From Bdellovibrionales bacterium (lineage in GTDB: Bacteria > Bdellovibrionota > Bdellovibrionia > Bdellovibrionales > UBA1609), in NCBI GenBank assembly GCA_963692945.1, contig OY843585.1:720001-752000 (forward strand): DNA of 32,000 nt, given 5' to 3'. The position numbers and the translations under genes were made by a program. Positions 6,559-23,651 of this stretch are shown here, piece after piece. Under the pieces are notes generated by a model, which saw nothing but the letters and a program-made list of their open reading frames with translations, made no database searches and had not been told where the DNA came from. Each line of letters starts with the position of its first letter. Within the stretch, counting starts at the first letter, position 1.

Positions 6559-6930
6559 TTATTTTTTGGTTTTTAGTTGTTTAGGTTCTCTTTTATCAGG
6601 TTCAACATATGTGACATCATTTTTTTTGCAGATTTGACTCATATAGACTTCCATATGGCTTAAATGATTTACTTCTATTGTGGTTATCTTACCTTTTATT
6701 CCTGTCATATCTTCTTTTATTTCTGTTATATCTTCTTTTATTCCTGTTATATCTTTTTTCATTCCTGTCATATCTTTTTTCATTCCTGTCATATCTTCTT
6801 TTATTCCTGTTATATCTTCTTTTAAAGGTTTTACTGTATTATCAAAATGATTTTTGATATCATTGATTATAATTCTTTCTCTTTCATCTCTATATTCTGG
6901 TTTTATTCCGTTTCCCATTTTGTTCTCCAC
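6559..6930 (-). CDS. Hypothetical coiled-coil protein with 7 perfect heptad repeats (KEDITGI/KKDMTGM)
   Basis: 123 aa. The 21-nt tandem repeat has register points at 6699, 6720, 6741, 6762, 6783 and 6804. Confidence 0.6.
   Translation of the reverse strand: MENKMGNGIKPEYRDERERIIINDIKNHFDNTVKPLKEDITGIKEDMTGMKKDMTGMKKDITGIKEDITEIKEDMTGIKGKITTIEVNHLSHMEVYMSQICKKNDVTYVEPDKREPKQLKTKK
6690..6830 (-). repeat. Intragenic 21-nt tandem repeat x7 (encodes the heptads)
   Basis: ttcctgt(c/t)atatctt(c/t)ttt(t/c)a recurs with a 21-nt period. Confidence 0.9.
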
Positions 6931-7206: not shown

Positions 7207-9285
7207 TTAAAAGCTGGTGTAACAGTTTTTGATTTTTGTGACGCAAAAATGATTCATGGAGTTGGAAACCATTTCAAAAATATTTTGATTGGCACTACCA
7301 ATAGATGATTTTGTTCCTGAATCTCTAGAACGATAGGTTTGAGGTAGTGTCACTGGTTTTTGATTGGAAGCTAGGGTTCGTTTCCCAAAACCTCCTTGTA
7401 AATAAGAACCACGACTTGTTGTTTTGGATTTTGAACTTGAGCCAAAAAATCTTGTTTTCACGGTTTGCCATGTGCTCATTGTTTCGGAGGGTGTTTCTGA
7501 TGTAGATTTCTGAAGGGCTGAACTGGCAAGATTGTTTTTTGATTCTTCATCTGTTTCCGTCAACTTGTTATCATCATTTATCCCAGGCACTAAGTCTTTT
7601 GTTTTTTTGTCGGTGTCTTCAAGACCATCAGGGGTTTCATCGTCTTTGGCCATTTTGTTTCTTTCTTCAAGGAATTTTTTTAAATCGTATGGGTCGCCGC
7701 CATTGGGTTTGTAAGGATTTCCTGATGGAGAACTTCCTGGTGATTCAGAAGTAGAACTTCTTACATTATATCCAGGTCCTACTTGAGAATAAGAAGGGGA
7801 TTGCGAGGGTAACCCATTGTATGAAGAAGAGTCTCCTTCTCCTGAGCTACCACCTGTTAAAGTTCCTGTTGACGATGGTTTATTAGGGTCTTTAGAGTTT
7901 TTAGCCAAACAAGCTTGTTCTGCATGACTTTTGGATTCTTTTTTTATTCTTTCTTCGTTTTTTTCGCTTAATATTATCTTTTCGCAACTTGGAAAATGAT
8001 CTATTGAAGCTCCTTTTGTAATTAATAAATATTCATCCGTTGATGGTTCATACAATTTTTTAGTAGAACTGCTATCAAAAAATTTATCTTTAATTTGTGT
8101 TAGAATCTCTTTATACTTTATAGAGATGTTCACAATGTGTTTCTCACATTTAGAGTTTTCATTAACGGCATCTTTAAAACTGGAAACATAAAAACACCTT
8201 TTAAATTTGTCACGGAATTGTTCTAGAGCAGTATTACAAGTGTTATGACATTGTTTTACATTAGCTTTACAGATATCTATTCTTTTATTATATATGTTAC
8301 TTTCTAAAAGCTCTTTATTTTTACATTGATGAGGATGAGGATTTTTTATATTTTTTAAGTAAGTATTAAAAGATTTTTTATGTTCACAGTCTTCTTGATC
8401 AAGATTACTGCAACAAGATTTTTTTGTTTCAGGATAGTGACCGCATTTGTATAAAAGAGTGTCGCCTTCTCCCTTATGAGGCTTGAGAAACTTATAGAGT
8501 TCTTTTATACAACCCTCCGGTTCGTTGATGTCGGTGTTACATCTTGCTTCTTTTTCCTCTTTAAGTTTTTCGATTTCTTTATTATATTGTTCTAGAAGAT
8601 TGGTATCGATGTTACAATGATTTATGTATATTTCCATTATTTTTTTAAAATATTCATGTGAACCTACTGTAAAATTTTTAAGTTTCAAACCATCATTAGA
8701 AGCAAAACCATCATGGCATAGATCTCTTGATTTTTTTAATTTGTTCCAATCACTATATAGATGTGTTCCTTCTTTTGGTTTGGGTTTTTTGTCTATCTCG
8801 TTTATCTGTCTGATTGTATTATCAAAATGTTTGTCAATTTTATCATTACAAAGACGTGTTAATTTTTTAAAACTAGATAAAGCCATACCTGCTGATGGTA
8901 TCGGGATATCAATTTTCTCCGTATTGTGTTTATAAACTATTTTATTAAAAATTTCTGTAAACTTTCCTGTAAACCTTCCAGAATTATGTTTTATATTTAA
9001 ATCGTTACAATGTTTATCAAAAAATATTCTATATCTTTGATTTGTGAAAGTAGCACGTTCATCAGTATCCGTATCCAAAAAACCTTCAAAATCTTGCATC
9101 TTTTCTCTTATATCGGTTGTTGTTAAATCAGTCTCCTCCTTAAATATATCTTCATCACTAGGACTAGAATAGAATTTTATTGTATTTATCTTGGGACAGT
9201 CATCACATGCGTTTGCTGAGCTTATAGATAAAAGACTTATCATGAGAAATAAAAAAGGTTTAAAAATTTTTGTAAAAGATAACAT
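7207..9285 (-). CDS. Large secreted cysteine-rich protein with a low-complexity S/T/G/P-rich C-terminal third (hypothetical)
   Basis: 692 aa. Signal peptide MLSFTKIFKPFLFLMISLLSISSANA. More than 30 Cys in residues ~27-460, then a Ser/Gly/Pro/Thr-rich region. No recognised catalytic motif. Confidence 0.7.
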   Translation of the reverse strand: MLSFTKIFKPFLFLMISLLSISSANACDDCPKINTIKFYSSPSDEDIFKEETDLTTTDIREKMQDFEGFLDTDTDERATFTNQRYRIFFDKHCNDLNIKHNSGRFTGKFTEIFNKIVYKHNTEKIDIPIPSAGMALSSFKKLTRLCNDKIDKHFDNTIRQINEIDKKPKPKEGTHLYSDWNKLKKSRDLCHDGFASNDGLKLKNFTVGSHEYFKKIMEIYINHCNIDTNLLEQYNKEIEKLKEEKEARCNTDINEPEGCIKELYKFLKPHKGEGDTLLYKCGHYPETKKSCCSNLDQEDCEHKKSFNTYLKNIKNPHPHQCKNKELLESNIYNKRIDICKANVKQCHNTCNTALEQFRDKFKRCFYVSSFKDAVNENSKCEKHIVNISIKYKEILTQIKDKFFDSSSTKKLYEPSTDEYLLITKGASIDHFPSCEKIILSEKNEERIKKESKSHAEQACLAKNSKDPNKPSSTGTLTGGSSGEGDSSSYNGLPSQSPSYSQVGPGYNVRSSTSESPGSSPSGNPYKPNGGDPYDLKKFLEERNKMAKDDETPDGLEDTDKKTKDLVPGINDDNKLTETDEESKNNLASSALQKSTSETPSETMSTWQTVKTRFFGSSSKSKTTSRGSYLQGGFGKRTLASNQKPVTLPQTYRSRDSGTKSSIGSANQNIFEMVSNSMNHFCVTKIKNCYTSF

Positions 9286-9594
9286 AGCCCTATTATTATA
9301 TCGTCAAAAATAGGAAAAGGAGTTAAAAAATTTATTATATTTCTATTTATAAATTATTTATTTAAATCTATTTGAATGGATTTTTTGAAATTTTATTAAA
9401 TTGGATTCAAATCTCATTTAAAAAGTGATTTTTATCCTTTTAAAAGAGAGGAAAAACAAAAACCGTTCAGTTTTTAAACACTTGCTTTTGTAAAATTAAA
9501 GAAATTGTATTTATAAAGAAGCTTTTCATTGTGTTTTTTTGAAAATCATTTAATATAAATGAGTCTCATTTTGAGACACTTACAAGGAGGTTAT

Positions 9595-10545
9595 ATGGTT
9601 TTATGGGACAAGGATGTTTATCGGGAAGGTTTTAAAAAAACTTTTAGTATGAATTTTTTTAAAACTCTTTTCTTGGTATTTTTTTTAATCTTTGGTTTTT
9701 CTAGTTTTTCTTTAACAATAGATTGTGAAGATGAAAATCATGTAGATAGAAAACTGCAAGAAAGACCTAAAGATCATCTCCTCTTAGTTATGAAAGCCAA
9801 ATGCCTGTTATTAAGGGGCAAAAAAGACGAAGCCTTTAGGTATTTAATAAAAGGGAAAGATCAAAAAGGAATTTACCCTGCTTATATGGTGGCCAGATAT
9901 ATAAAAACCGATGGGACTTTTGAAGATATTGACGACCCAGTTAGACATAGTGAAATTACAGATTCAGCTATAGCTTCTTATAAAGAGGTTATAGATCTTA
10001 TTAAATCCATTCCTAACTATCCTAATGCTATATCAACGGACGGTTCTACAGTGCTTTATGCTCTTTTAGAAAAAGATCATTTATTTGAACTGGCTTCTTT
10101 TTATATGATATCAGTAAGTTATTTTGATAGATATTTTTTGCAAGTCATAGATCATCATGCTCAGCTGGAGCATTCTTCACCGGGTTATGAAGAGGGGACA
10201 GGGACTGGTGCTCCTTTGCTTCCTGTTATTCGGCATTATCAAGGCCCTGTTTACAGTTTAAATACATTAGAAGAGGTCTCCACTCATTGTAGTCAAAACT
10301 CTAATCCCTATAATAAAGAACTTTACGATATATATATAGAACTTTGTAATCATATGAAAAACTTTGTAATGGAGGTTAGAGATTTAGAAAATGAGAGAGC
10401 TCATAAAGCACAAATCTGTAAAGATTTTATAAAATTAGAAGGGGAGTTTTGTGAATCTTATTGGAATGCAGTAGGAGAAATCAAAAAGAAGAGAGATATT
10501 ATTTTAAAAAGAATGGGCGAACTGCTTTCAAAATCTAGCTATTGA
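9595..10545 (+). CDS. Hypothetical secreted or membrane-anchored protein
   Basis: The ORF is open from 9559, but an AAGGAGG lies 5 nt before the ATG at 9595. Hydrophobic segment FFKTLFLVFFLIFGFSSFS. No family recognised. Confidence 0.6.
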   Translation: MVLWDKDVYREGFKKTFSMNFFKTLFLVFFLIFGFSSFSLTIDCEDENHVDRKLQERPKDHLLLVMKAKCLLLRGKKDEAFRYLIKGKDQKGIYPAYMVARYIKTDGTFEDIDDPVRHSEITDSAIASYKEVIDLIKSIPNYPNAISTDGSTVLYALLEKDHLFELASFYMISVSYFDRYFLQVIDHHAQLEHSSPGYEEGTGTGAPLLPVIRHYQGPVYSLNTLEEVSTHCSQNSNPYNKELYDIYIELCNHMKNFVMEVRDLENERAHKAQICKDFIKLEGEFCESYWNAVGEIKKKRDIILKRMGELLSKSSY

Positions 10546-12251: not shown

Positions 12252-12830
12252 TTAACATATACCTAAAATTAGAACAGGAATATCAATGTTGGAAGTTCCT
12301 CTGGTTTCTAAGTCCCAAACAAATTGCTCAAAGTAAGACACTCCAGAAGACATTTCATCAGCTAATTCTTTTAATGGAACTATTTCTATGCCTGCATCAA
12401 TATGATCCAGATTTTTAAATATAGTCATCTTAGCACAAACATTATAAGCCATAAAAGCATACTTACCAAATTGAACTTCTACACCAAGACGATTTTTTAC
12501 AAAATCCATATCACGAAAAGCTCCTTGATTTAAAGGCTTAGGATTTTTATGGATTTCTGTATAGTAGTTTTTTGAATATTCACAATTTACTTTAAGAGAG
12601 TTCCAACCCAAAGGCGAAAGTGTTTTCTTAAATTGTTCATTAAACAATACAGGGCTATATAACTTTTTGCCTTTCATAGTTTTTTCTTTACTTATTTTCT
12701 TTTTACTATTTGATTTTTTAATTTTTTTTATACACGATTCAATTTCTAGTTTAGCATCTAGAAAATTTTTATTTATATAATCTTCACCATTGTTAAAACT
12801 AAATTTCCCTGCAATTTTCATTAAAACCAT
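12252..12830 (-). CDS. Type II restriction endonuclease, BglII/BamHI-like fold
   Basis: RDMDFVKNRLGVEVQFGKY reproduces the BglII catalytic D-x8-E-x-Q arrangement (BglII: DIDFGKRDTLVEVQF). The later IEIVPLK...SSGVSYFEQ resembles BglII VAIIITK...SSLYYEQ. The alternative start at 12821 gives a TAATG stop-start overlap with the methylase. Confidence 0.7.
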   Translation of the reverse strand: MVLMKIAGKFSFNNGEDYINKNFLDAKLEIESCIKKIKKSNSKKKISKEKTMKGKKLYSPVLFNEQFKKTLSPLGWNSLKVNCEYSKNYYTEIHKNPKPLNQGAFRDMDFVKNRLGVEVQFGKYAFMAYNVCAKMTIFKNLDHIDAGIEIVPLKELADEMSSGVSYFEQFVWDLETRGTSNIDIPVLILGIC

Positions 12831-13747
12831 TCCTTTGGAATTTGAGTGATTTTATCAGTCAATTTTGGTTGATGAATTTTTGTTCCAATCTTTCTAGTTT
12901 TTAAAACCCCTGCTTTTAAATCTTTAATTCTTAATTTTGCTTCATTACAATAATCCTTATCTTTCTCTATACAAATGCTATGCCTTCTATTTTTTAATGC
13001 AGCTAAAGCTGTTGTGCCAACTCCAGCAAATGGATCTAAAATCCAATCTTCTTGATTTGTAAAAGCTAAAACACAACGTTCTATAAGTTCAATAGGAAAT
13101 TGGCAAGGATGTGATGTTTTCTCAGGATGATTGGCTTTAACATTTGGTATGTCAATAATTCCACTATTAAACTCTTCTCTTATAAGTTCCCAAAAATCAG
13201 AAGGATTTTTACCTAGAGGGTTACCACTGGGTAGTCCCTTCTTTTTACCTTTAAAATGTCGTTTTCCTGGATATTTTGAAGGTACTCTAATATCATCAAG
13301 ATTAAATGTATAACTATCATTTTTTGTGAACCAAAGTAAAGTCTCATACCGACCAGAAAGACGTTTTGAGGCATGCAATCCGTGGTTGAAATGCCAAATG
13401 ATTCTATTTCGCAGTTTTAAACCTAACTCTTTAAAAATAGGATAGAAATAAATGTCAAGAGGGTAAACTTCCCCCTTATCTACAAAATTACCTACCTGCC
13501 AACAAAGACTTCCATTTTTTTTAAGAACTCTACAGAGTTCCTTTATAACTTCCTTTTGCCAATCCAAATAAGAACTAAGACCTATTTTTTTTTCATAGGA
13601 CTTTCCAAGATTATAAGGAGGAGATGTGATAACTAATTTCATACTTTGTTTATCTATTTTAGAAAGACCTTTAAAGACATCTTCATTGTATATAATAGAA
13701 TTTAATTTTGATTTATCATCATCTTTAAAAATTGACATTTGTTCCAT
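12821..13747 (-). CDS. DNA methyltransferase, beta-class N4/N6 (SPPY motif, probably N4-cytosine)
   Basis: Motif IV TSPPYNLGK is near the N-terminus and motif I LDPFAGVGTT near the C-terminus (IV-to-I order, beta class). It overlaps the endonuclease gene. Confidence 0.88.
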   Translation of the reverse strand: MEQMSIFKDDDKSKLNSIIYNEDVFKGLSKIDKQSMKLVITSPPYNLGKSYEKKIGLSSYLDWQKEVIKELCRVLKKNGSLCWQVGNFVDKGEVYPLDIYFYPIFKELGLKLRNRIIWHFNHGLHASKRLSGRYETLLWFTKNDSYTFNLDDIRVPSKYPGKRHFKGKKKGLPSGNPLGKNPSDFWELIREEFNSGIIDIPNVKANHPEKTSHPCQFPIELIERCVLAFTNQEDWILDPFAGVGTTALAALKNRRHSICIEKDKDYCNEAKLRIKDLKAGVLKTRKIGTKIHQPKLTDKITQIPKEWF

Positions 13748-13888: not shown

Positions 13889-14113
13889 ATGAAAATATTT
13901 TTATTGTTAGGATTGGTTATTGTTTCTTTTGGTTGTTGGGAAGAAGATTATAATTCTTATTTTCCTCCTGGGCAATCTTTTACATATCCTGATAAGAGCT
14001 TATCTGAAATTCAACTCACTGGTGATTATTCTGTATTAGGAACTAAAGAAACAGGAAAGTATAAGGTTACTGAGAAATATAAAAAAATCAAGAAACTACC
14101 TAAACGTAAATAA
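13889..14113 (+). CDS. Small putative lipoprotein or secreted protein (74 aa)
   Basis: AGAGGG Shine-Dalgarno sequence. MKIFLLLGLVIVSFGC is a signal peptide with a lipobox-like SFGC. Confidence 0.5.
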   Translation: MKIFLLLGLVIVSFGCWEEDYNSYFPPGQSFTYPDKSLSEIQLTGDYSVLGTKETGKYKVTEKYKKIKKLPKRK

Positions 14114-14226: not shown

Positions 14227-15762
14227 TTAATCAGCATGTGCAGCTGTTTTTGCAAATTCCATAAGAATTTTTTTACATTTTTCCATTCTCATTTTAATTT
14301 TTGTCCTAGTTTTGAAATTAAATTTATTATTTTTTAAATATTCTTCTAAAAATTTTATTTCAAAATGAACTAAATCTATCTTAAGACGTAAGAGATGATT
14401 ATTTTTAGATAAATTATGTAATTCCCAATTTTTGTTAAAAAAAGGATTTTTAAAGTTATTGTCAAAAAGTTTTTCTGTAGGGATTCTGTTTTTTGATAAA
14501 AATTCTATAATCTCATCTGGTAAAAGTATGTCACTTTCTTCTAAAGAATCTAACAATTCATTAATATTTTGAACTCCTTCATAGATTCTTTGTATTATCT
14601 TAAAAGGCTCATCTTCATAATCTACTTTCATTTTTAAATCTGGTATTATATGCTCATGCTCTTCTGCATTTTTAATATCTTTCCAATATTCTTCCATATC
14701 ATTCTTAATAAATGGAAGATTATATTTATTGTCATCTTTATAAAATTTTAGATAGATATCATCATTTTTAGTTTCCTCATTTTCACAAATATTCTTCTGA
14801 GAAAAAAATAATGCTATATTTTTACCCTGAGAATCTTTAGAACTTCCATAGATTATACCATGAGAGCCTTGTTTTTTGATATATTCAGATAAAATCTGAG
14901 TTGGAACATAATCTGTATGCTCTCTACCATCTTTTTTTATTGGCTCAGATAATTTTGTTGCAAATTCTTGGATAAAAATTAAATCATTTCTTTTTTTCCT
15001 CTGATTTTCATTTATATCAAAAAAGCTTGGTATTTCTTCATTGCTTTTTAAAGTTAAATCAATAACTTGTATTTCCTTTAAAAGTTGAAATTCTGCAATA
15101 TAGGCAAGCCCTTTATGGTCTAAAGAAATTTCAGTTAAAGCCATTTTTTTGTCAAAAGAAGCATATAAAATTGGTATTCTAGGAGGACTCATTCTATTAG
15201 AAGTATTCATAATATCTTCTGGTTCTGGAGGGCCCATTCTTCTTAGATCATTTACAATGCAATTACCTTCTGTAAAAGCTCTAGCTCTATATATTTTTAT
15301 TTGTTTTGTTGGTTTTATATTTTTTTTTAGATCATTTTTTTCTATTATTTTCATTGCTTCTTGTAAAATATTAGTTTGAGAAGAAAAGAAAAATCTCTTT
15401 TCTTTTTTTACATAGTTAGAAAAATCATCCCATTTTTTTAAGAATCCTCTTCTATCAATTAGATGTACTTTTCCAAGTTTGCTTTTAATGAGAGTTTTAG
15501 CATCCTGAAGTAGTTTTTCTTTCTGAACGGGGAAGTAATTTTCCATGAAATCTGATAATGTTTCAGAGTTATTATTTGATCTAGTTATACAATAAATTTC
15601 TTTTAAACAAATAAGAATGTGGTCAATTAGTTTCTCTAAATGGACGGTTTTCTTATTTTTATTTTGACAGTAGTTACAGTCAGAAATTGTTCCATTGTGA
15701 TTTATGAATTTTTTTAACCCAGGTTCATTTTCTAAGCATATCTCACAACAAATAAGAGACAT
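14227..15762 (-). CDS. RES-domain protein with an N-terminal CxxC...CxxC zinc-ribbon-like module and a ~170-aa helical C-terminal extension
   Basis: 511 aa. N-terminal CCEIC...CNYC. RES signature in order: KIYRARAF (R), NRMSPPRIPILYAS...ALTEISL (E), DYVPTQILSEYIKKQGSHGIIYGSS (S). Confidence 0.75.
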   Translation of the reverse strand: MSLICCEICLENEPGLKKFINHNGTISDCNYCQNKNKKTVHLEKLIDHILICLKEIYCITRSNNNSETLSDFMENYFPVQKEKLLQDAKTLIKSKLGKVHLIDRRGFLKKWDDFSNYVKKEKRFFFSSQTNILQEAMKIIEKNDLKKNIKPTKQIKIYRARAFTEGNCIVNDLRRMGPPEPEDIMNTSNRMSPPRIPILYASFDKKMALTEISLDHKGLAYIAEFQLLKEIQVIDLTLKSNEEIPSFFDINENQRKKRNDLIFIQEFATKLSEPIKKDGREHTDYVPTQILSEYIKKQGSHGIIYGSSKDSQGKNIALFFSQKNICENEETKNDDIYLKFYKDDNKYNLPFIKNDMEEYWKDIKNAEEHEHIIPDLKMKVDYEDEPFKIIQRIYEGVQNINELLDSLEESDILLPDEIIEFLSKNRIPTEKLFDNNFKNPFFNKNWELHNLSKNNHLLRLKIDLVHFEIKFLEEYLKNNKFNFKTRTKIKMRMEKCKKILMEFAKTAAHAD

Positions 15763-15989
15763 TAATTTTCTTTATCTCTTGGAGGGAATGGATCATTTCC
15801 GTAAGAATCTTTAGAACGAATTTTTCCATCTCTACCGTGGGTTACAACTTCAGATTTAGATATTTTAGCTCTAACAGTTGCACTTTTTATAGCATTTTTT
15901 TGAGTATTATGTGAAGACAATACGCGTCCAGAATTTTTTACAGACCAACCTTTTCCTAGTTTTACAATATGAAAGTCTTTTTTAGACAT
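15762..15989 (-). CDS. DUF2188-family small protein
   Basis: 75 aa. FHIVKLGKGWSVKNSG...THGRDGKIRSKDSYGNDPFPPRD matches the DUF2188 pattern (WaVk...HgrdGrI...DSYGnDP.PP). Its TAATG stop-start overlaps the RES gene. Confidence 0.75.
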   Translation of the reverse strand: MSKKDFHIVKLGKGWSVKNSGRVLSSHNTQKNAIKSATVRAKISKSEVVTHGRDGKIRSKDSYGNDPFPPRDKEN

Positions 15990-16134
15990 ACCTACACCTC
16001 CTTTCCAAGTAGATTGTATTATAAATGATCTATTTTTTCAAATTATATTTTAAATTAAGGGAATATAAAAACATTTTTTAAAAAATTTTTCATAGAGATA
16101 TAAAATCTAATGTTGTATAATAAAGGAGTAAAGA

Positions 16135-16334: not shown

Positions 16335-16841
16335 TTACCTGCAATCTGATAGAAAGCAACCACCATTTCTAGAGCCTACATGTTTTAATTTTATCGTATT
16401 CCCTTGATTATCTGTGCAAGCTGTTTTGTAGTTTAATTTTTCATGGGAAACATCAAGACAAATAAAACCTCTGCTATGACTAACTTCACCACCACAATGA
16501 AGCCCTTTTATAATTGAACGATTATAACTACCGCTTCTTATAGATATCTGATTCGGAGGAAGAGGGGATGAGTGTGTGATTGGGGTTCCAGCACCTGCAG
16601 TTCCAGCCCTTCCATAACTATCGCATTTAATTCCTATTTCAGAGTAGGAATCACACTCACTGAGAGGTTTAAGAGTTAAACAAGCTTCTAAGGCTTTGCT
16701 AATGTTTGTAATACTAGCATTTATTACTCTTAAAGCAGCTTTACTTTGATATTTATTGTAAGCAGGTATCACAATAGAAGCTAATACTCCTACAATTCCA
16801 ACTACGATTAAAACTTCTATAAGTGAAAAACCTTTTTTCAT
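16335..16841 (-). CDS. Type IV pilin-like protein (prepilin N-terminal cleavage/methylation motif)
   Basis: MKKG|FSLIEVLIVVGIVGVLASIVIPAY is a class III signal with Glu5. The C-terminal domain contains Cys. Confidence 0.85.
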   Translation of the reverse strand: MKKGFSLIEVLIVVGIVGVLASIVIPAYNKYQSKAALRVINASITNISKALEACLTLKPLSECDSYSEIGIKCDSYGRAGTAGAGTPITHSSPLPPNQISIRSGSYNRSIIKGLHCGGEVSHSRGFICLDVSHEKLNYKTACTDNQGNTIKLKHVGSRNGGCFLSDCR

Positions 16842-16902: not shown

Positions 16903-17508
16903 CTAAAAGCCAGGAACAACAGGGGATGGCTTGAACTCTGTCGGTGTAAAAATTTTTGGAAGTGCTGGAGGGTTTCTTCCTCCACTTAATCCTGGATGAG
17001 TGTGTGTAGGTGCAGGATGATTGTGTGGATGATCGTGTGCAGGTGTTGCATGAGTGTGTGCAGTTGTTGCATGAGTGTGTGCAGGTGTTGCATGAGTGTG
17101 TGCAGTTGCAGGATGAGTGTGTGGAGGTATAGAAGCTAAATTTCTCACAACACCACACCTGTTACTCGTATCGGTAGGGGAAGACTTATAAAGTTCACAA
17201 CATTGCTCTAAAGTAACTCCCTCATCTAAAGTAAATTTTGAATCATCTCTTTCAAGACTTAATTCAAAGTTAGCCCCTGTGCTTTTGCTTGGGTCTGTAA
17301 CTTCAATAGGTCTTATCAAATCTTGTGATTTTAAAACTCTTTCAATCTCTTTTTTACAAGCATCATTCGGTCTTGGATCAGGGGGGTTCGTGGCAAGATT
17401 GTTTATGGCTAGATAGACTTTCATTTTAGCCCAATCTCTTTTGTATTTTTTTTGAATTTTAGATTGGGATTGAGACTGAGAAACCAAAACACTTCCCATT
17501 CCCAGCAT
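16903..17508 (-). CDS. His-rich pilin-like (minor-pilin-like) protein; the listed ORF is N-terminally truncated relative to an open frame reaching 17643
   Basis: The frame is open upstream of Met-17508 and encodes ...INNPQG|STLISVLIASVIGTIVMLGMG (prepilin-like hydrophobic N-terminus lacking Glu5). The C-terminus has (AHTHATP)n repeats. The nearest upstream ATG (17655-17657) is out of frame across a G10 tract. Confidence 0.6.
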   Translation of the reverse strand: MLGMGSVLVSQSQSQSKIQKKYKRDWAKMKVYLAINNLATNPPDPRPNDACKKEIERVLKSQDLIRPIEVTDPSKSTGANFELSLERDDSKFTLDEGVTLEQCCELYKSSPTDTSNRCGVVRNLASIPPHTHPATAHTHATPAHTHATTAHTHATPAHDHPHNHPAPTHTHPGLSGGRNPPALPKIFTPTEFKPSPVVPGF

Positions 17509-17853: not shown

Positions 17854-18615
17854 ATGAACCTACTTATATCCTTACTTATGAACCTACTTATATCCTTATT
17901 TGTCTTTTTAACTATGGCGACGCAAGCTCTATCGCCTCATGATCTTTTAAACCAAGAACTCATTGAGGCATCTAAGCGTGGTGATAAAGCTCAAGTTGAA
18001 CAGTTACTTCATAGAAACGAAATCAGTCTCTATGCTAGAAATAGAGAAGGAAAAACGGCTCTTATATTAGCGTCTCAAAAAGGTCGTGCAGATATTGTTG
18101 AACTGTTGCTCGCTAAAGGATTTGATGTCAATGCTCATGGTAAAAATGCAGTAAAAACGGCTCTTATATTAGCATCTCAAAAAGGCTATACAGATATCGT
18201 TGAACTGTTGCTCAATGCAGGAGCTAATCCTAATGCTCAAAATTTATTGGAAGAAACGGCTCTTATATTAGCGTCTCAAAAAGGTTATAAGAGTATCGTT
18301 AAACTGCTGATTGTTTCCGAAGACATTGATACAGAAATTAAGAATAGGTATAAAAACACCGCTCGCATGTTGGCTCTTCAAAAAGGTCATAAAGAGATTG
18401 TTCGTTTACTTGATGAGGCAAACGTTAAAAATGAGGCAAACGCTACAAAGAACACAACTAGTTTGGACTCGAGAGACTCGAGAGATTGGTGGAATCCGCA
18501 GACCAAGGCAGATGCTACAAATAACACAACTAGTTTGGAACCTAATAAGGCAAGAAAAAGCAATTGCAAAAAATATTTTTTTAGAGCGAACTCTCATTTA
18601 CAAAAACCTCTGTAA
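17854..18615 (+). CDS. Ankyrin-repeat protein with an N-terminal signal or hydrophobic segment
   Basis: 253 aa with four or more ANK units (GKTALILASQKGxxDIVELLLxxGAxxNA). The first 24 nt, including the ATG, are tandemly duplicated (MNLLISLL-MNLLISLF). Confidence 0.85.
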   Translation: MNLLISLLMNLLISLFVFLTMATQALSPHDLLNQELIEASKRGDKAQVEQLLHRNEISLYARNREGKTALILASQKGRADIVELLLAKGFDVNAHGKNAVKTALILASQKGYTDIVELLLNAGANPNAQNLLEETALILASQKGYKSIVKLLIVSEDIDTEIKNRYKNTARMLALQKGHKEIVRLLDEANVKNEANATKNTTSLDSRDSRDWWNPQTKADATNNTTSLEPNKARKSNCKKYFFRANSHLQKPL

Positions 18616-18867: not shown

Positions 18868-19512
18868 ATGATGTTTAACATGAATAAAAAGATTCGTTCT
18901 TGCTTTAGAAAAAATAAAGGATTTTCATTGATAGAATTACTTGTAGTTGTAGAAATTATTGGAATTTTAGTTGCTGTGGCTATACCAACATACAATCACT
19001 ATAAAGTGGATGCCGCTCAATCTTCATTGACAGCCTCTCTACACTCTATCGGGAAAGCTTTTGCTGCTTGTCTTGCATTGAGGTCTTTTAGTAATTGCAA
19101 CAGTCTATCAGAACTAAAAGTAAGTTGTCCGGACTGTACTAAAGAATCCACTGGAAGAACGGCTATACCTTATTGTGTTGAAGCTAAATTACAGGCAGGA
19201 GGAATAAACCATAAGGCATGTATGTCTTCTTCAGGAGGAATTCCTTTAATTACTGGTAACTGGGATAGTCTTTGTAAGAACATGTCAGCAGATTATATTT
19301 GTAATGCTGCAGGTAATGGATACAATGCACGATCTTCTTGTAATCAGATAGGTTGTTCTAACCCATCTGAATCTATCCCATCAGGTTCATGTACAGCAGC
19401 AGTTACTCGTAAATTCCGTAACTGTGGTGATGACAATAATCCTGAAGCTCGCTCAACGGCTAGTAGCTCTGGTGGAAGTTGTGACACTACAACTGGATTG
19501 TGTAGCCAATAA
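18868..19512 (+). CDS. Type IV pilin-like protein, Cys-rich C-terminal domain
   Basis: AAGGAG Shine-Dalgarno sequence. ...FRKNKG|FSLIELLVVVEIIGILVAVAIPTY class III signal. 214 aa, about 14 Cys. Confidence 0.85.
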   Translation: MMFNMNKKIRSCFRKNKGFSLIELLVVVEIIGILVAVAIPTYNHYKVDAAQSSLTASLHSIGKAFAACLALRSFSNCNSLSELKVSCPDCTKESTGRTAIPYCVEAKLQAGGINHKACMSSSGGIPLITGNWDSLCKNMSADYICNAAGNGYNARSSCNQIGCSNPSESIPSGSCTAAVTRKFRNCGDDNNPEARSTASSSGGSCDTTTGLCSQ

Positions 19513-20505: not shown

Positions 20506-21354
20506 TTATTGAAAACTGTTCTTGCATTTTTTTTGTTTTAAGTATTTTAAAACTTTTGGATTTTTAGTTAGTGTATGTGTTTCTCTTTCAGATCTTGTTT
20601 TTACATTGGGGTCCGCTCCGTGCTTCAAAAGAAGTTTCACCATTTTTTCATTTTCTGAATAAACAGCATTATGTAAAGGGTTCCATCCTATTCGGTCTTG
20701 AATATTTAGATTTATTTTTTTATTTGTAAGAAGAATCTTTGCAGCTTCTAAATTTTTTTTATTTACAACCATTTGAACGGCTGAAATTTTAAGTATATTA
20801 GTTGCATTTATATCAATATCTTTTCTGGTTATAAGTTGATTGAGTATGTTTTTTTCAGGTCCATCAATCGTAAAAAGCAAGGGCTGTAAATAAGATGCAT
20901 AGATCAAAGGTGTATTGTAGTTTGTATCAAGTGCATTGACATCTATATCTTTTTGTTGGAGGAGGAACTCCACGCTTTTTTCGCTTGGTGTGAAAGCGGC
21001 TAGGTGAAGGAGTGTTATATCGTATTCATATTGATAATTTACATTTAAATTTTGATCTATTAAAAACTTCACGAAGCTTACCTTGTCTAAGGCTGTTACT
21101 GTGTAAAGAATTTCATATTTCAAGAGTTCTATCTCTTCTGGTGACATTTTGGCTTCCACCTTGTCTAAAAGATTTTTGAACTTTTCTATATCTCCAGATT
21201 CAATCGTTTCTCCTAGTGCCATGAAATCACTTTTGTCCATCTGGATGACAGGTTTATTTTGTGTCATTTCTGGTGTTAAGGCAAAGCTGACAACAGAACT
21301 AATGGTAAGAAAAAAGTAAAAGAAAAATCTCATAAATCTCCACCATAATTTCAT
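20506..21354 (-). CDS. Ankyrin-repeat protein with signal peptide
   Basis: 282 aa. Hydrophobic N-terminus FFFYFFLTISSVVSFA. ANK-like units (TLLHLAA..., NPLHNAVYSENEKMVKLLLKHGADPN). Confidence 0.8.
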   Translation of the reverse strand: MKLWWRFMRFFFYFFLTISSVVSFALTPEMTQNKPVIQMDKSDFMALGETIESGDIEKFKNLLDKVEAKMSPEEIELLKYEILYTVTALDKVSFVKFLIDQNLNVNYQYEYDITLLHLAAFTPSEKSVEFLLQQKDIDVNALDTNYNTPLIYASYLQPLLFTIDGPEKNILNQLITRKDIDINATNILKISAVQMVVNKKNLEAAKILLTNKKINLNIQDRIGWNPLHNAVYSENEKMVKLLLKHGADPNVKTRSERETHTLTKNPKVLKYLKQKKCKNSFQ

Positions 21355-23105: not shown

Positions 23106-23651
23106 CTAATGGCATGTGTGAAAGGTAAAATTGCAATTTCCTCCAGAGACACCAGATTTGCCATTGTGTGATGACCCTCCTGCACTATCAATGCAAACTC
23201 TCAATGTTACTCTGTTAGTTCCTTGGAATCCAAGTTTTTGATATTCTTTTTTTATGGAATTTGGACTTACTATAACGCACCATTTTGAAGGGTCTGAAGT
23301 GTTGCTAAGTGTATAATAAGAGTCGATAAATATATGAAAGGTAAAGAAGTTTTTTTCTTTGAAAAGTTTGTCCTTTGCCTTGTTAATTGTGTCCAAGGTA
23401 GTTAGATTGATATAGCCTTTATAGGCTTGAGTGGACATAACAGATTCTTGGACTATTAAAACGTTTGATAGTATTTTTTGAACAAGAGATGCATTTTTGT
23501 ATTTTTGATAGGAAGGAATAGCAATAGCCGTTAAAAGACCTATAATCGCTATAGTTGCAAGCATCTCCATGAGAGAAAATCCTATGTTTTTGGGATTCAT
23601 TTTTAAAAATGAAATGGATTTTTTGTCCGTTGAAACAAAGTTTGCTTTCAT
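23106..23651 (-). CDS. Type IV pilin-like protein
   Basis: ...MNPKNIG|FSLMEMLATIAIIGLLTAIAIPSY class III signal with Glu5. 181 aa from the first ATG; the true start may be the internal MNPKNIG. Confidence 0.8.
   Translation of the reverse strand: MKANFVSTDKKSISFLKMNPKNIGFSLMEMLATIAIIGLLTAIAIPSYQKYKNASLVQKILSNVLIVQESVMSTQAYKGYINLTTLDTINKAKDKLFKEKNFFTFHIFIDSYYTLSNTSDPSKWCVIVSPNSIKKEYQKLGFQGTNRVTLRVCIDSAGGSSHNGKSGVSGGNCNFTFHTCH

Follow-up and report, generated by a model that had tools for sequence, protein, structure and literature searches.

We analysed a stretch of 32,000 nucleotides (nt) from the genome of a Bdellovibrionales bacterium (GenBank assembly GCA_963692945.1, contig OY843585.1, positions 720,001 to 752,000), hereafter termed the window, in which two genes form a compact cassette. 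Both lie on the minus strand. The first encodes a protein of 75 amino acids (aa) belonging to the DUF2188 family (15762..15989) and the second a 511-aa protein assignable to the aRES family (14227..15762), composed of a Zn-ribbon, a HEPN/RES N-terminal domain 1 (HEPN/RES-NTD1), a RES catalytic domain and a C-terminal helical domain. The stop codon of the DUF2188 gene overlaps the start codon of the RES gene within a TAATG junction (15760..15764, minus strand), an arrangement of translational coupling. An earlier reading of this DNA, based on the sequence alone and referred to here as the original prediction, had described the same two open reading frames (ORFs) and their overlap without giving the strand, and had taken them for a non-canonical toxin-antitoxin (TA) or abortive-infection module. 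Its observations were confirmed throughout, whereas its interpretation was only partly supported.

The RES catalytic domain (aa 187-320 by its Pfam envelope; 14803..15204, minus strand) was recognised by hmmscan against Pfam as PF08808 with E=1.3e-12 and 48.4 bits for a cutoff of 23.2. In an alignment of 14 homologs, residues R190, Y200, E211, Y285, P287, T288, Q289 and S307 were invariant, so that the R, E and S signature regions recognised by the original prediction were borne out by profile and alignment alike. An AlphaFold2 model of the protein was confident over residues 1-350, and its best matches in the PDB according to Foldseek were the RES toxins NatT, ParT and Xre-RES. Judged by these profile matches and alignments, the RES domain is genuine and its catalytic residues are intact. 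Upstream of it, HEPN/RES-NTD1 (aa 23-130; 15373..15696, minus strand) was matched by PF18870 with E=6.2e-6; the same family is found among the precomputed Pfam hits for P0001, and a paralogous RES protein from another Bdellovibrionales genome (L012, see below) exceeds the PF18870 cutoff with 34.8 bits. The extreme N-terminus forms a Zn-ribbon (aa 1-35; 15658..15762, minus strand) whose four cysteines C6/C9 and C29/C32 are conserved in the alignment (A1; 14 homologs). The original prediction had regarded this CxxC module as an addition to the RES domain. It is indeed present but is not a novelty, since Anantharaman et al. (2013), who defined HEPN/RES-NTD1, had already reported that some RES fusions bear a further N-terminal Zn-ribbon, and the module is now a defining part of the aRES proteins.

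Proteins combining a Zn-ribbon, NTD1 and RES were named aRES by Osterman et al. (bioRxiv 10.64898/2026.01.28.702374, January 2026), who described them as stand-alone antiphage proteins. Upon infection, aRES depletes NAD+ by phosphorolysis to nicotinamide and ADP-ribose-1''-phosphate (ADPR-1''-phosphate), and it is non-toxic and works in E. coli without any partner (bioRxiv 10.64898/2026.01.28.702374). The detection rule of these authors combines a length of 300-600 aa with the presence of both the RES and the PF18870 domains. The window protein measures 511 aa and carries PF08808 and PF18870 in a single polypeptide, the latter as detected by hmmscan where the published criterion is an HHsearch probability above 80%. 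The aRES of E. coli UC5, which also possesses the Zn-ribbon cysteine motif, aligned collinearly with the window protein over aa 6-319 (BLASTP, E=6e-16, 21% identity). Both share the R/E/S active site, and a location beside restriction-modification (R-M) genes is likewise common to known aRES and the window copy. As far as tested, the window protein thus appears to be a member of the aRES family as defined by Osterman et al. Scanning a single genome for each species brought up 339 relatives in many phyla, the nearest in Bdellovibrionales metagenome-assembled genomes, and most of them were solo genes. Outside the Bdellovibrionales, the genes found upstream were a mixture of type I R-M, UvrD helicase, SRA/PvuRts1I, M78 peptidase and LmuB-like genes, and Xre/DUF2384 was not seen upstream of these relatives. 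This mixture agrees with the description of aRES as stand-alone genes of defence islands.

Close RES homologs end near residue 350. The window protein extends beyond this point by an all-alpha domain (aa 347-511, 165 aa; 14227..14724 including the stop codon, minus strand), which corresponds to the helical C-terminal extension of about 170 aa noted in the original prediction and was modelled by AlphaFold2 as four long helices (pLDDT, the predicted local distance difference test, 78). Rather than a mere extension, it proved to be a defined domain that recurs in HNH and NIR proteins. An exhaustive search with residues 347-511 returned 87 representative homologs, the nearest with a phmmer E-value of 1.9e-24 and 34 of them with E <1e-10. 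Homology extended from end to end at 27-45% identity around a core NPFxN[RK]NWExHNL (alignments A4 and A5), and the last residue was an Asp in every member of the family (codon 14230-14232 in the window), which suggests that a free C-terminus matters for function. No match to this tail was found in Pfam, PADLOC, NCBIfam or PHROGs. Nearly all of the homologs are proteins of about 274 aa with an N-terminal half similar to HNH nucleases, namely those of Cap5 from cyclic oligonucleotide-based antiphage signalling systems (CBASS), HNH-Shedu and PDC-M68A; most of the shorter ones start inside the HNH motif and are on that account considered truncated gene calls. In two further cases the HNH is replaced by DUF4062. 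This domain now goes by the name of NIR, and recent work has established it as an NADase effector found in combination with exchangeable sensor domains. Tail proteins with HNH or NIR, such as the Cap5-like proteins of Alteromonas macleodii (P0238) and Psychromonas (P0226) and the NIR/DUF4062 protein P0189, are encoded by genes that stand alone in variable or mobile parts of the genome and are all uncharacterised. They have the tail in common with the window protein, but the effector of the latter is a RES domain and its aRES N-terminal region is kept. Among the 87 representatives, the fusion of RES and tail is unique to this genome, and its junction falls exactly at both domain boundaries. By these homology criteria, the tail is a real, defined and recurrent domain that had previously escaped annotation. 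In every member of the family it stands C-terminal to the effector domain within one polypeptide, and because these proteins, otherwise minimal, always place it after an enzyme that kills the cell, we propose that it may serve as a transferable module for regulation, sensing or oligomerisation.

Three explanations for the tail were considered and gained no support. No tail homolog, as ORF or pseudogene, was present in 87 RES loci, which speaks against a fusion with a downstream gene of the relatives. A foreign origin could not be read from composition, as a GC content of 0.23 in the tail against 0.27 in the RES core is uninformative in a genome of 32% GC. Finally, the tail is probably not the ligand-binding domain of VstA, the NIR protein that together with the phosphatase VstB makes up Vesta, as judged by gene neighbourhood: the locus of the NIR-tail protein P0189 (L185) has no alkaline phosphatase next to it. 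In the paralogous cassette at L012 (2992-4749), the RES protein of 585 aa ends in a different tail of about 210 aa, without detectable similarity to that of the window, which indicates that C-terminal additions are variable in this RES clade.

The DUF2188 assignment of the upstream gene made in the original prediction was upheld: the 75-aa protein matched PF09954 with E=2e-15 (57 bits for a cutoff of 22) over profile positions 1-62 of 62. It also matched PDC-S16, a single-gene candidate in PADLOC, with E=1.7e-25 over positions 1-74 of 75, and phrog_3220, a PHROGs family of unknown function, with E=1e-18. DUF2188 was the sole Pfam match, neither a helix-turn-helix (HTH) nor a DUF2384 domain being detected in the protein. 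It belongs to a subfamily marked by HGRDGxIR..DSYG, within an invariant H..W..T..A..HGRDG.IR..DSYG signature, of which 472 homologs at 50-84% identity were retrieved. No solved structure was found for this subfamily by phmmer or profile searches against the PDB, and the literature search returned no paper on 'PDC-S16'.

The adjacency of the two genes was then found to be a conserved property of one lineage. A DUF2188 gene of 75-77 aa lies directly upstream of the RES gene in all nine distinct Bdellovibrionales loci (the window together with L001-L004 and L008-L012, L002 and L009 being on the same contig), whereas DUF2188 was absent within 3 kb of RES from each of the 70 related RES loci of other phyla (0/70), among which no conserved upstream partner of any kind emerged. 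The gene-neighbourhood survey proposed with the original prediction gave a positive answer inside this order and a negative one outside it, and we conclude from the two counts that the adjacency is real, conserved and lineage-restricted. The two genes overlap in five of the nine loci, through TAATG in the window, L001, L002 and L008 and through TAGTG in L003; the gap is of 8-10 nt in two loci and of about 50 nt in the remaining two, one of which carries a truncated RES gene. Overlap or a gap of at most 10 nt is thus found in 7/9. The genes on either side vary between loci (AbiEii/Schlafen, Shedu, SufBD, pilins, methylases), which indicates that the pair moves as a unit. Moreover, it has been retained in two divergent paralogs located roughly 7 kb apart, whose RES proteins are about 41% identical to that of the window. 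These paralogs, L011 and L012, are carried by one genome (OZ241914.1). The DUF2188 ORF upstream of the divergent RES paralog at L011 (2527-2937) carries a fused HNH-like domain at its N-terminus and no longer possesses the HGRDG..DSYG motif; another DUF2188 gene, intact and solo, lies 1 kb farther upstream (L011, 1298-1510). At L010 (2995-3756), the RES ORF that follows DUF2188 has only 253 aa although the tblastn match covers residues 4-351, and is probably a pseudogene. No partnership between DUF2188 and RES was described in the literature searched, as the original prediction had surmised.

The reverse search led to a different picture. In the 80 metagenomic loci closest to the window DUF2188, no member of this RES family occurred within 3 kb; the subfamily was solo in most of them and in all 11 IMG/VR viral loci examined. 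Where a tightly coupled downstream gene was present, it belonged to another defence system. At L165 (3001-5596), DUF2188 precedes a 2TM-NUDIX CBASS effector, a CdnG-like CD-NTase and a 143-aa ORF. At L159 (1475-3821), it precedes PycTM and then a cytidylate cyclase, both of a pyrimidine cyclase system for antiphage resistance (Pycsar), followed by a 153-aa ORF. On a human-gut metagenome contig (L182, 2343-3810), it stands directly before a ThsB-type TIR gene (E=1.5e-56); there, a second downstream ORF looks TIR-like by eye and two upstream ORFs of 429 and 202 aa are of unknown family. The possibility that DUF2188 is a partner of orphan effectors was ruled out by the CD-NTase and cytidylate cyclase genes that come next. 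Published contexts of DUF2188 comprise operons regulated by CapH/CapP, the vicinity of a Pseudomonas CBASS operon and a Thoeris island; a predicted role of DUF2188 in defence is attributed in that work to Burroughs & Aravind (2020). CapH/CapP and CapW/BrxR likewise occupy the leader position before unrelated defence systems. The likeness is positional only, DUF2188 being encoded on the same strand as its partner, translationally coupled, 75 aa in length and devoid of HTH or WYL domains and of any known regulatory activity. By these gene neighbourhoods, DUF2188 is not RES-specific and looks like a generic leader gene of defence operons, not like a dedicated antitoxin.

In the reading that we regard as fairly probable, the cassette encodes an abortive-infection effector of the aRES type, which would deplete NAD+ and be modulated by its tail and by DUF2188 as a generic accessory protein. 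For the 511-aa protein itself, abortive infection by NAD+ depletion is the most likely function, on the grounds of its homology to aRES, experimentally shown to defend in this way, and of its intact active site; in this respect the original prediction gained support. Infection would activate the RES protein, which by homology to aRES and RES toxins would then split NAD+ by phosphorolysis, yielding nicotinamide and ADPR-1''-phosphate; through this loss of NAD+ the infected cell would be arrested and the phage kept from spreading. The Zn-ribbon/NTD1 segment would represent the regulatory or sensing region proper to the aRES family, and the helical tail and DUF2188 would be lineage-specific additions that probably modulate the RES core. 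The tail would most likely act as a swappable module for regulation, sensing or oligomerisation. As for DUF2188, its conservation regardless of partner, its position ahead of complete signalling systems and its occurrence in phages point to an accessory factor of defence operons, most likely effector-independent, which would set a threshold or regulate expression. Directly observed are the domains present, an active site with its residues intact, the homology to validated aRES, the conserved coupling in this lineage and the varied partners of DUF2188 and of the tail; the reaction product, the defensive phenotype and the parts played by DUF2188 and the tail are inferred. The core of the cassette is a known family described in 2026, and what is new is its coupling to DUF2188, a tail fusion unique to this genome and the wide range of partners of both small modules.

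Several points weigh against this reading. Known aRES proteins are described as not operonically associated (bioRxiv 10.64898/2026.01.28.702374), whereas the window lineage is coupled to DUF2188; this stand-alone character is, however, a descriptive feature that lies outside the detection rule. The window protein is only 21% identical to the experimentally validated aRES members. In the Pfam check advised by the original prediction, the RES and DUF2188 matches were above their cutoffs but HEPN/RES-NTD1 scored 27.0 bits for a cutoff of 27.4 and fell 0.4 bits short. The extra 165-aa domain is carried by the window copy alone, and since the RES-tail fusion exists in a single genome, selection on the fusion is not assessable. 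The tail also has no structural analogue in the PDB or BFVD, the best E-values of 0.33-0.36 being to generic helical hairpins. Lastly, it has been argued in one paper that DUF2188 and the N-domain of the HicB antitoxin have a common fold, and a small upstream gene whose stop overlaps the next start is the classic arrangement of type II antitoxins.

These last two points lead to the first alternative, a non-canonical type II TA system in which DUF2188 would bind and neutralise the RES NADase, and in which a labile DUF2188, lost during phage shut-off or stress, would set the toxin free. The window cassette shares with Xre-RES, MbcA-MbcT, ParS-ParT and NatR-NatT the RES catalytic fold and a small upstream gene overlapping the toxin start. 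It differs from these systems by the lack of the Xre/DUF2384 antitoxin (COG5642), the upstream protein being a DUF2188 without HTH, and by the architecture of the toxin, which in Xre-RES-type systems is a single domain of 150-250 aa and here a 511-aa protein with sensor-like N- and C-terminal domains. It likewise differs from HicAB, as there is no HicA at the locus and the gene downstream of DUF2188 is RES; the link made in the literature between DUF2188, PDB 5JN6 and HicB was not reproduced for the present subfamily. The maintenance of the TAATG overlap with a small upstream gene across loci and paralogs and the shift of the module between genomic contexts do speak for a TA pair. So do the correlated divergence of the two proteins (r=0.80, without phylogenetic correction) and the fact that the DUF2188 proteins paired with the RES paralogs of L011 and L012 are 42-52% identical to that of the window, when the solo DUF2188 proteins of other phyla reach 53-64%. 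Promiscuous antitoxin domains have a precedent in the hyperpromiscuous Panacea domain, and the active site of aRES can be plugged by a small protein, as done by the phage inhibitor aRad1 (about 70 aa). DUF2188 is comparable to aRad1 in size and has homologs in phages (phrog_3220), but the two show no sequence or profile similarity, and DUF2188 was rejected as an aRad1 relative with hmmsearch E-values above 0.3 against aRad1a-c and an hhalign probability of 0.07%. Against a TA pair, homologs of aRES function on their own, without a partner and without toxicity, and 70 of the 70 related RES genes elsewhere have neither DUF2188 nor a conserved upstream gene. The DUF2188 subfamily is 50-64% identical between unrelated phyla, far above what is usual for a co-evolving antitoxin, is mostly solo and has no DNA-binding domain for autoregulation. 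As it is likewise the first gene of complete CBASS and Pycsar operons, in which the need for a signal already keeps the effectors in check, it cannot be viewed as a RES-specific neutraliser. We consider this alternative doubtful, and DUF2188 unlikely to be a RES-specific antitoxin; the antitoxin role assigned to it by the original prediction is weakened by these findings.

A bolder extension of the accessory-factor view would make the HGRDGxIR..DSYG subfamily a universal small modulator of nucleotide and NAD+ immunity, for instance a buffer of ligands or a setter of thresholds. Hosts would restrain autoimmunity by placing it first in aRES, CBASS, Pycsar and Thoeris operons, phages would blunt the same systems by means of their own copies (phrog_3220), and the tail would be a new portable trigger sensor for HNH, NIR and RES effectors; we regard this as improbable. 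The least likely reading, given the conserved coupling, is that of independent neighbours, with aRES acting alone and DUF2188 a separate defence-island element (PDC-S16) or small stress protein that is merely co-transcribed: the stand-alone description of aRES, the listing of the subfamily as a single-gene candidate by PADLOC and its solo occurrence in most metagenomic and all examined viral loci plead for it, but the close junctions kept in 7/9 loci, the persistence of the pair in duplicated copies that have diverged to about 41% RES identity, its relocation as a unit into different flanks and the recurrence of the DUF2188 leader position before other defence operons make it quite improbable.

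A lineage in which aRES is always coupled to a small partner offers a handle on the silencing or activation of aRES, in spite of its description in 2026 as self-sufficient. The presence of a highly conserved 75-aa protein before CBASS, Pycsar and Thoeris-like operons and in phages suggests a shared regulatory or counter-regulatory component of NAD+ and nucleotide immunity. The helical domain of about 160 aa, interchangeable among HNH, NIR and RES effectors, resembles a swappable sensor module. The DUF2188 coupling, the sharing of DUF2188 and the tail domain are testable leads, none of which changes the kind of system.

The signals surrounding the cassette were examined in the same window. A strong Shine-Dalgarno sequence, AAGGAGGTG, was read off 5 nt ahead of the DUF2188 ATG (15995..16003, minus strand). 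Farther upstream, two overlapping sigma-70-like promoter matches (16013..16069, minus strand; 10/12 positions) constitute weak evidence, as the count of promoter-like matches in this AT-rich region was not above shuffled expectation. A terminator scan found none at the cassette, matches being not above chance. On the other side of the cassette, a type II R-M pair consists of a BglII-like endonuclease (12252..12830, minus strand; Pfam Endonuc-BglII, E=5.5e-21) and an N6/N4 methylase (12821..13747, minus strand; N6_N4_Mtase, E=2.5e-55). Both genes are real, and 479 bp separate the end of the pair from the stop codon of the RES gene, in keeping with the 480 bp of the original prediction; it is part of the context and lies outside the cassette. 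The defence island inferred from it is nevertheless modest, because, outside the R-M pair, the window contains housekeeping genes together with pilin-like and ankyrin genes.

Three genes with an N-terminal methylation motif of the type IV pilin-like kind lie near the cassette (16335-16841, minus strand; 18868-19512, plus strand; 23106-23651, minus strand), and pilin-like genes also flank the homologous cassettes at L002 and L003. Between two of the pilin-like genes, a 201-aa ORF (16903-17508, minus strand) without Pfam match contains a repeat rich in His, Thr and Pro, HTHATPAHTHATTAHTHATPAHDHPHNHP. Two ankyrin-repeat protein genes are scattered about the cassette (17854-18615, plus strand; 20506-21354, minus strand). 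A few kb from the R-M pair, a 692-aa ORF (7207-9285, minus strand) and a 328-aa ORF (9559-10545, plus strand), both without Pfam match, and a 123-aa ORF (6559-6930, minus strand) with a FokI_D3 match below threshold could be further defence genes. Lastly, in the interval separating the methylase from the RES gene, the opposite strand bears a 74-aa ORF (13889-14113, plus strand) whose product has a lipoprotein-like signal sequence (…VSFGC).

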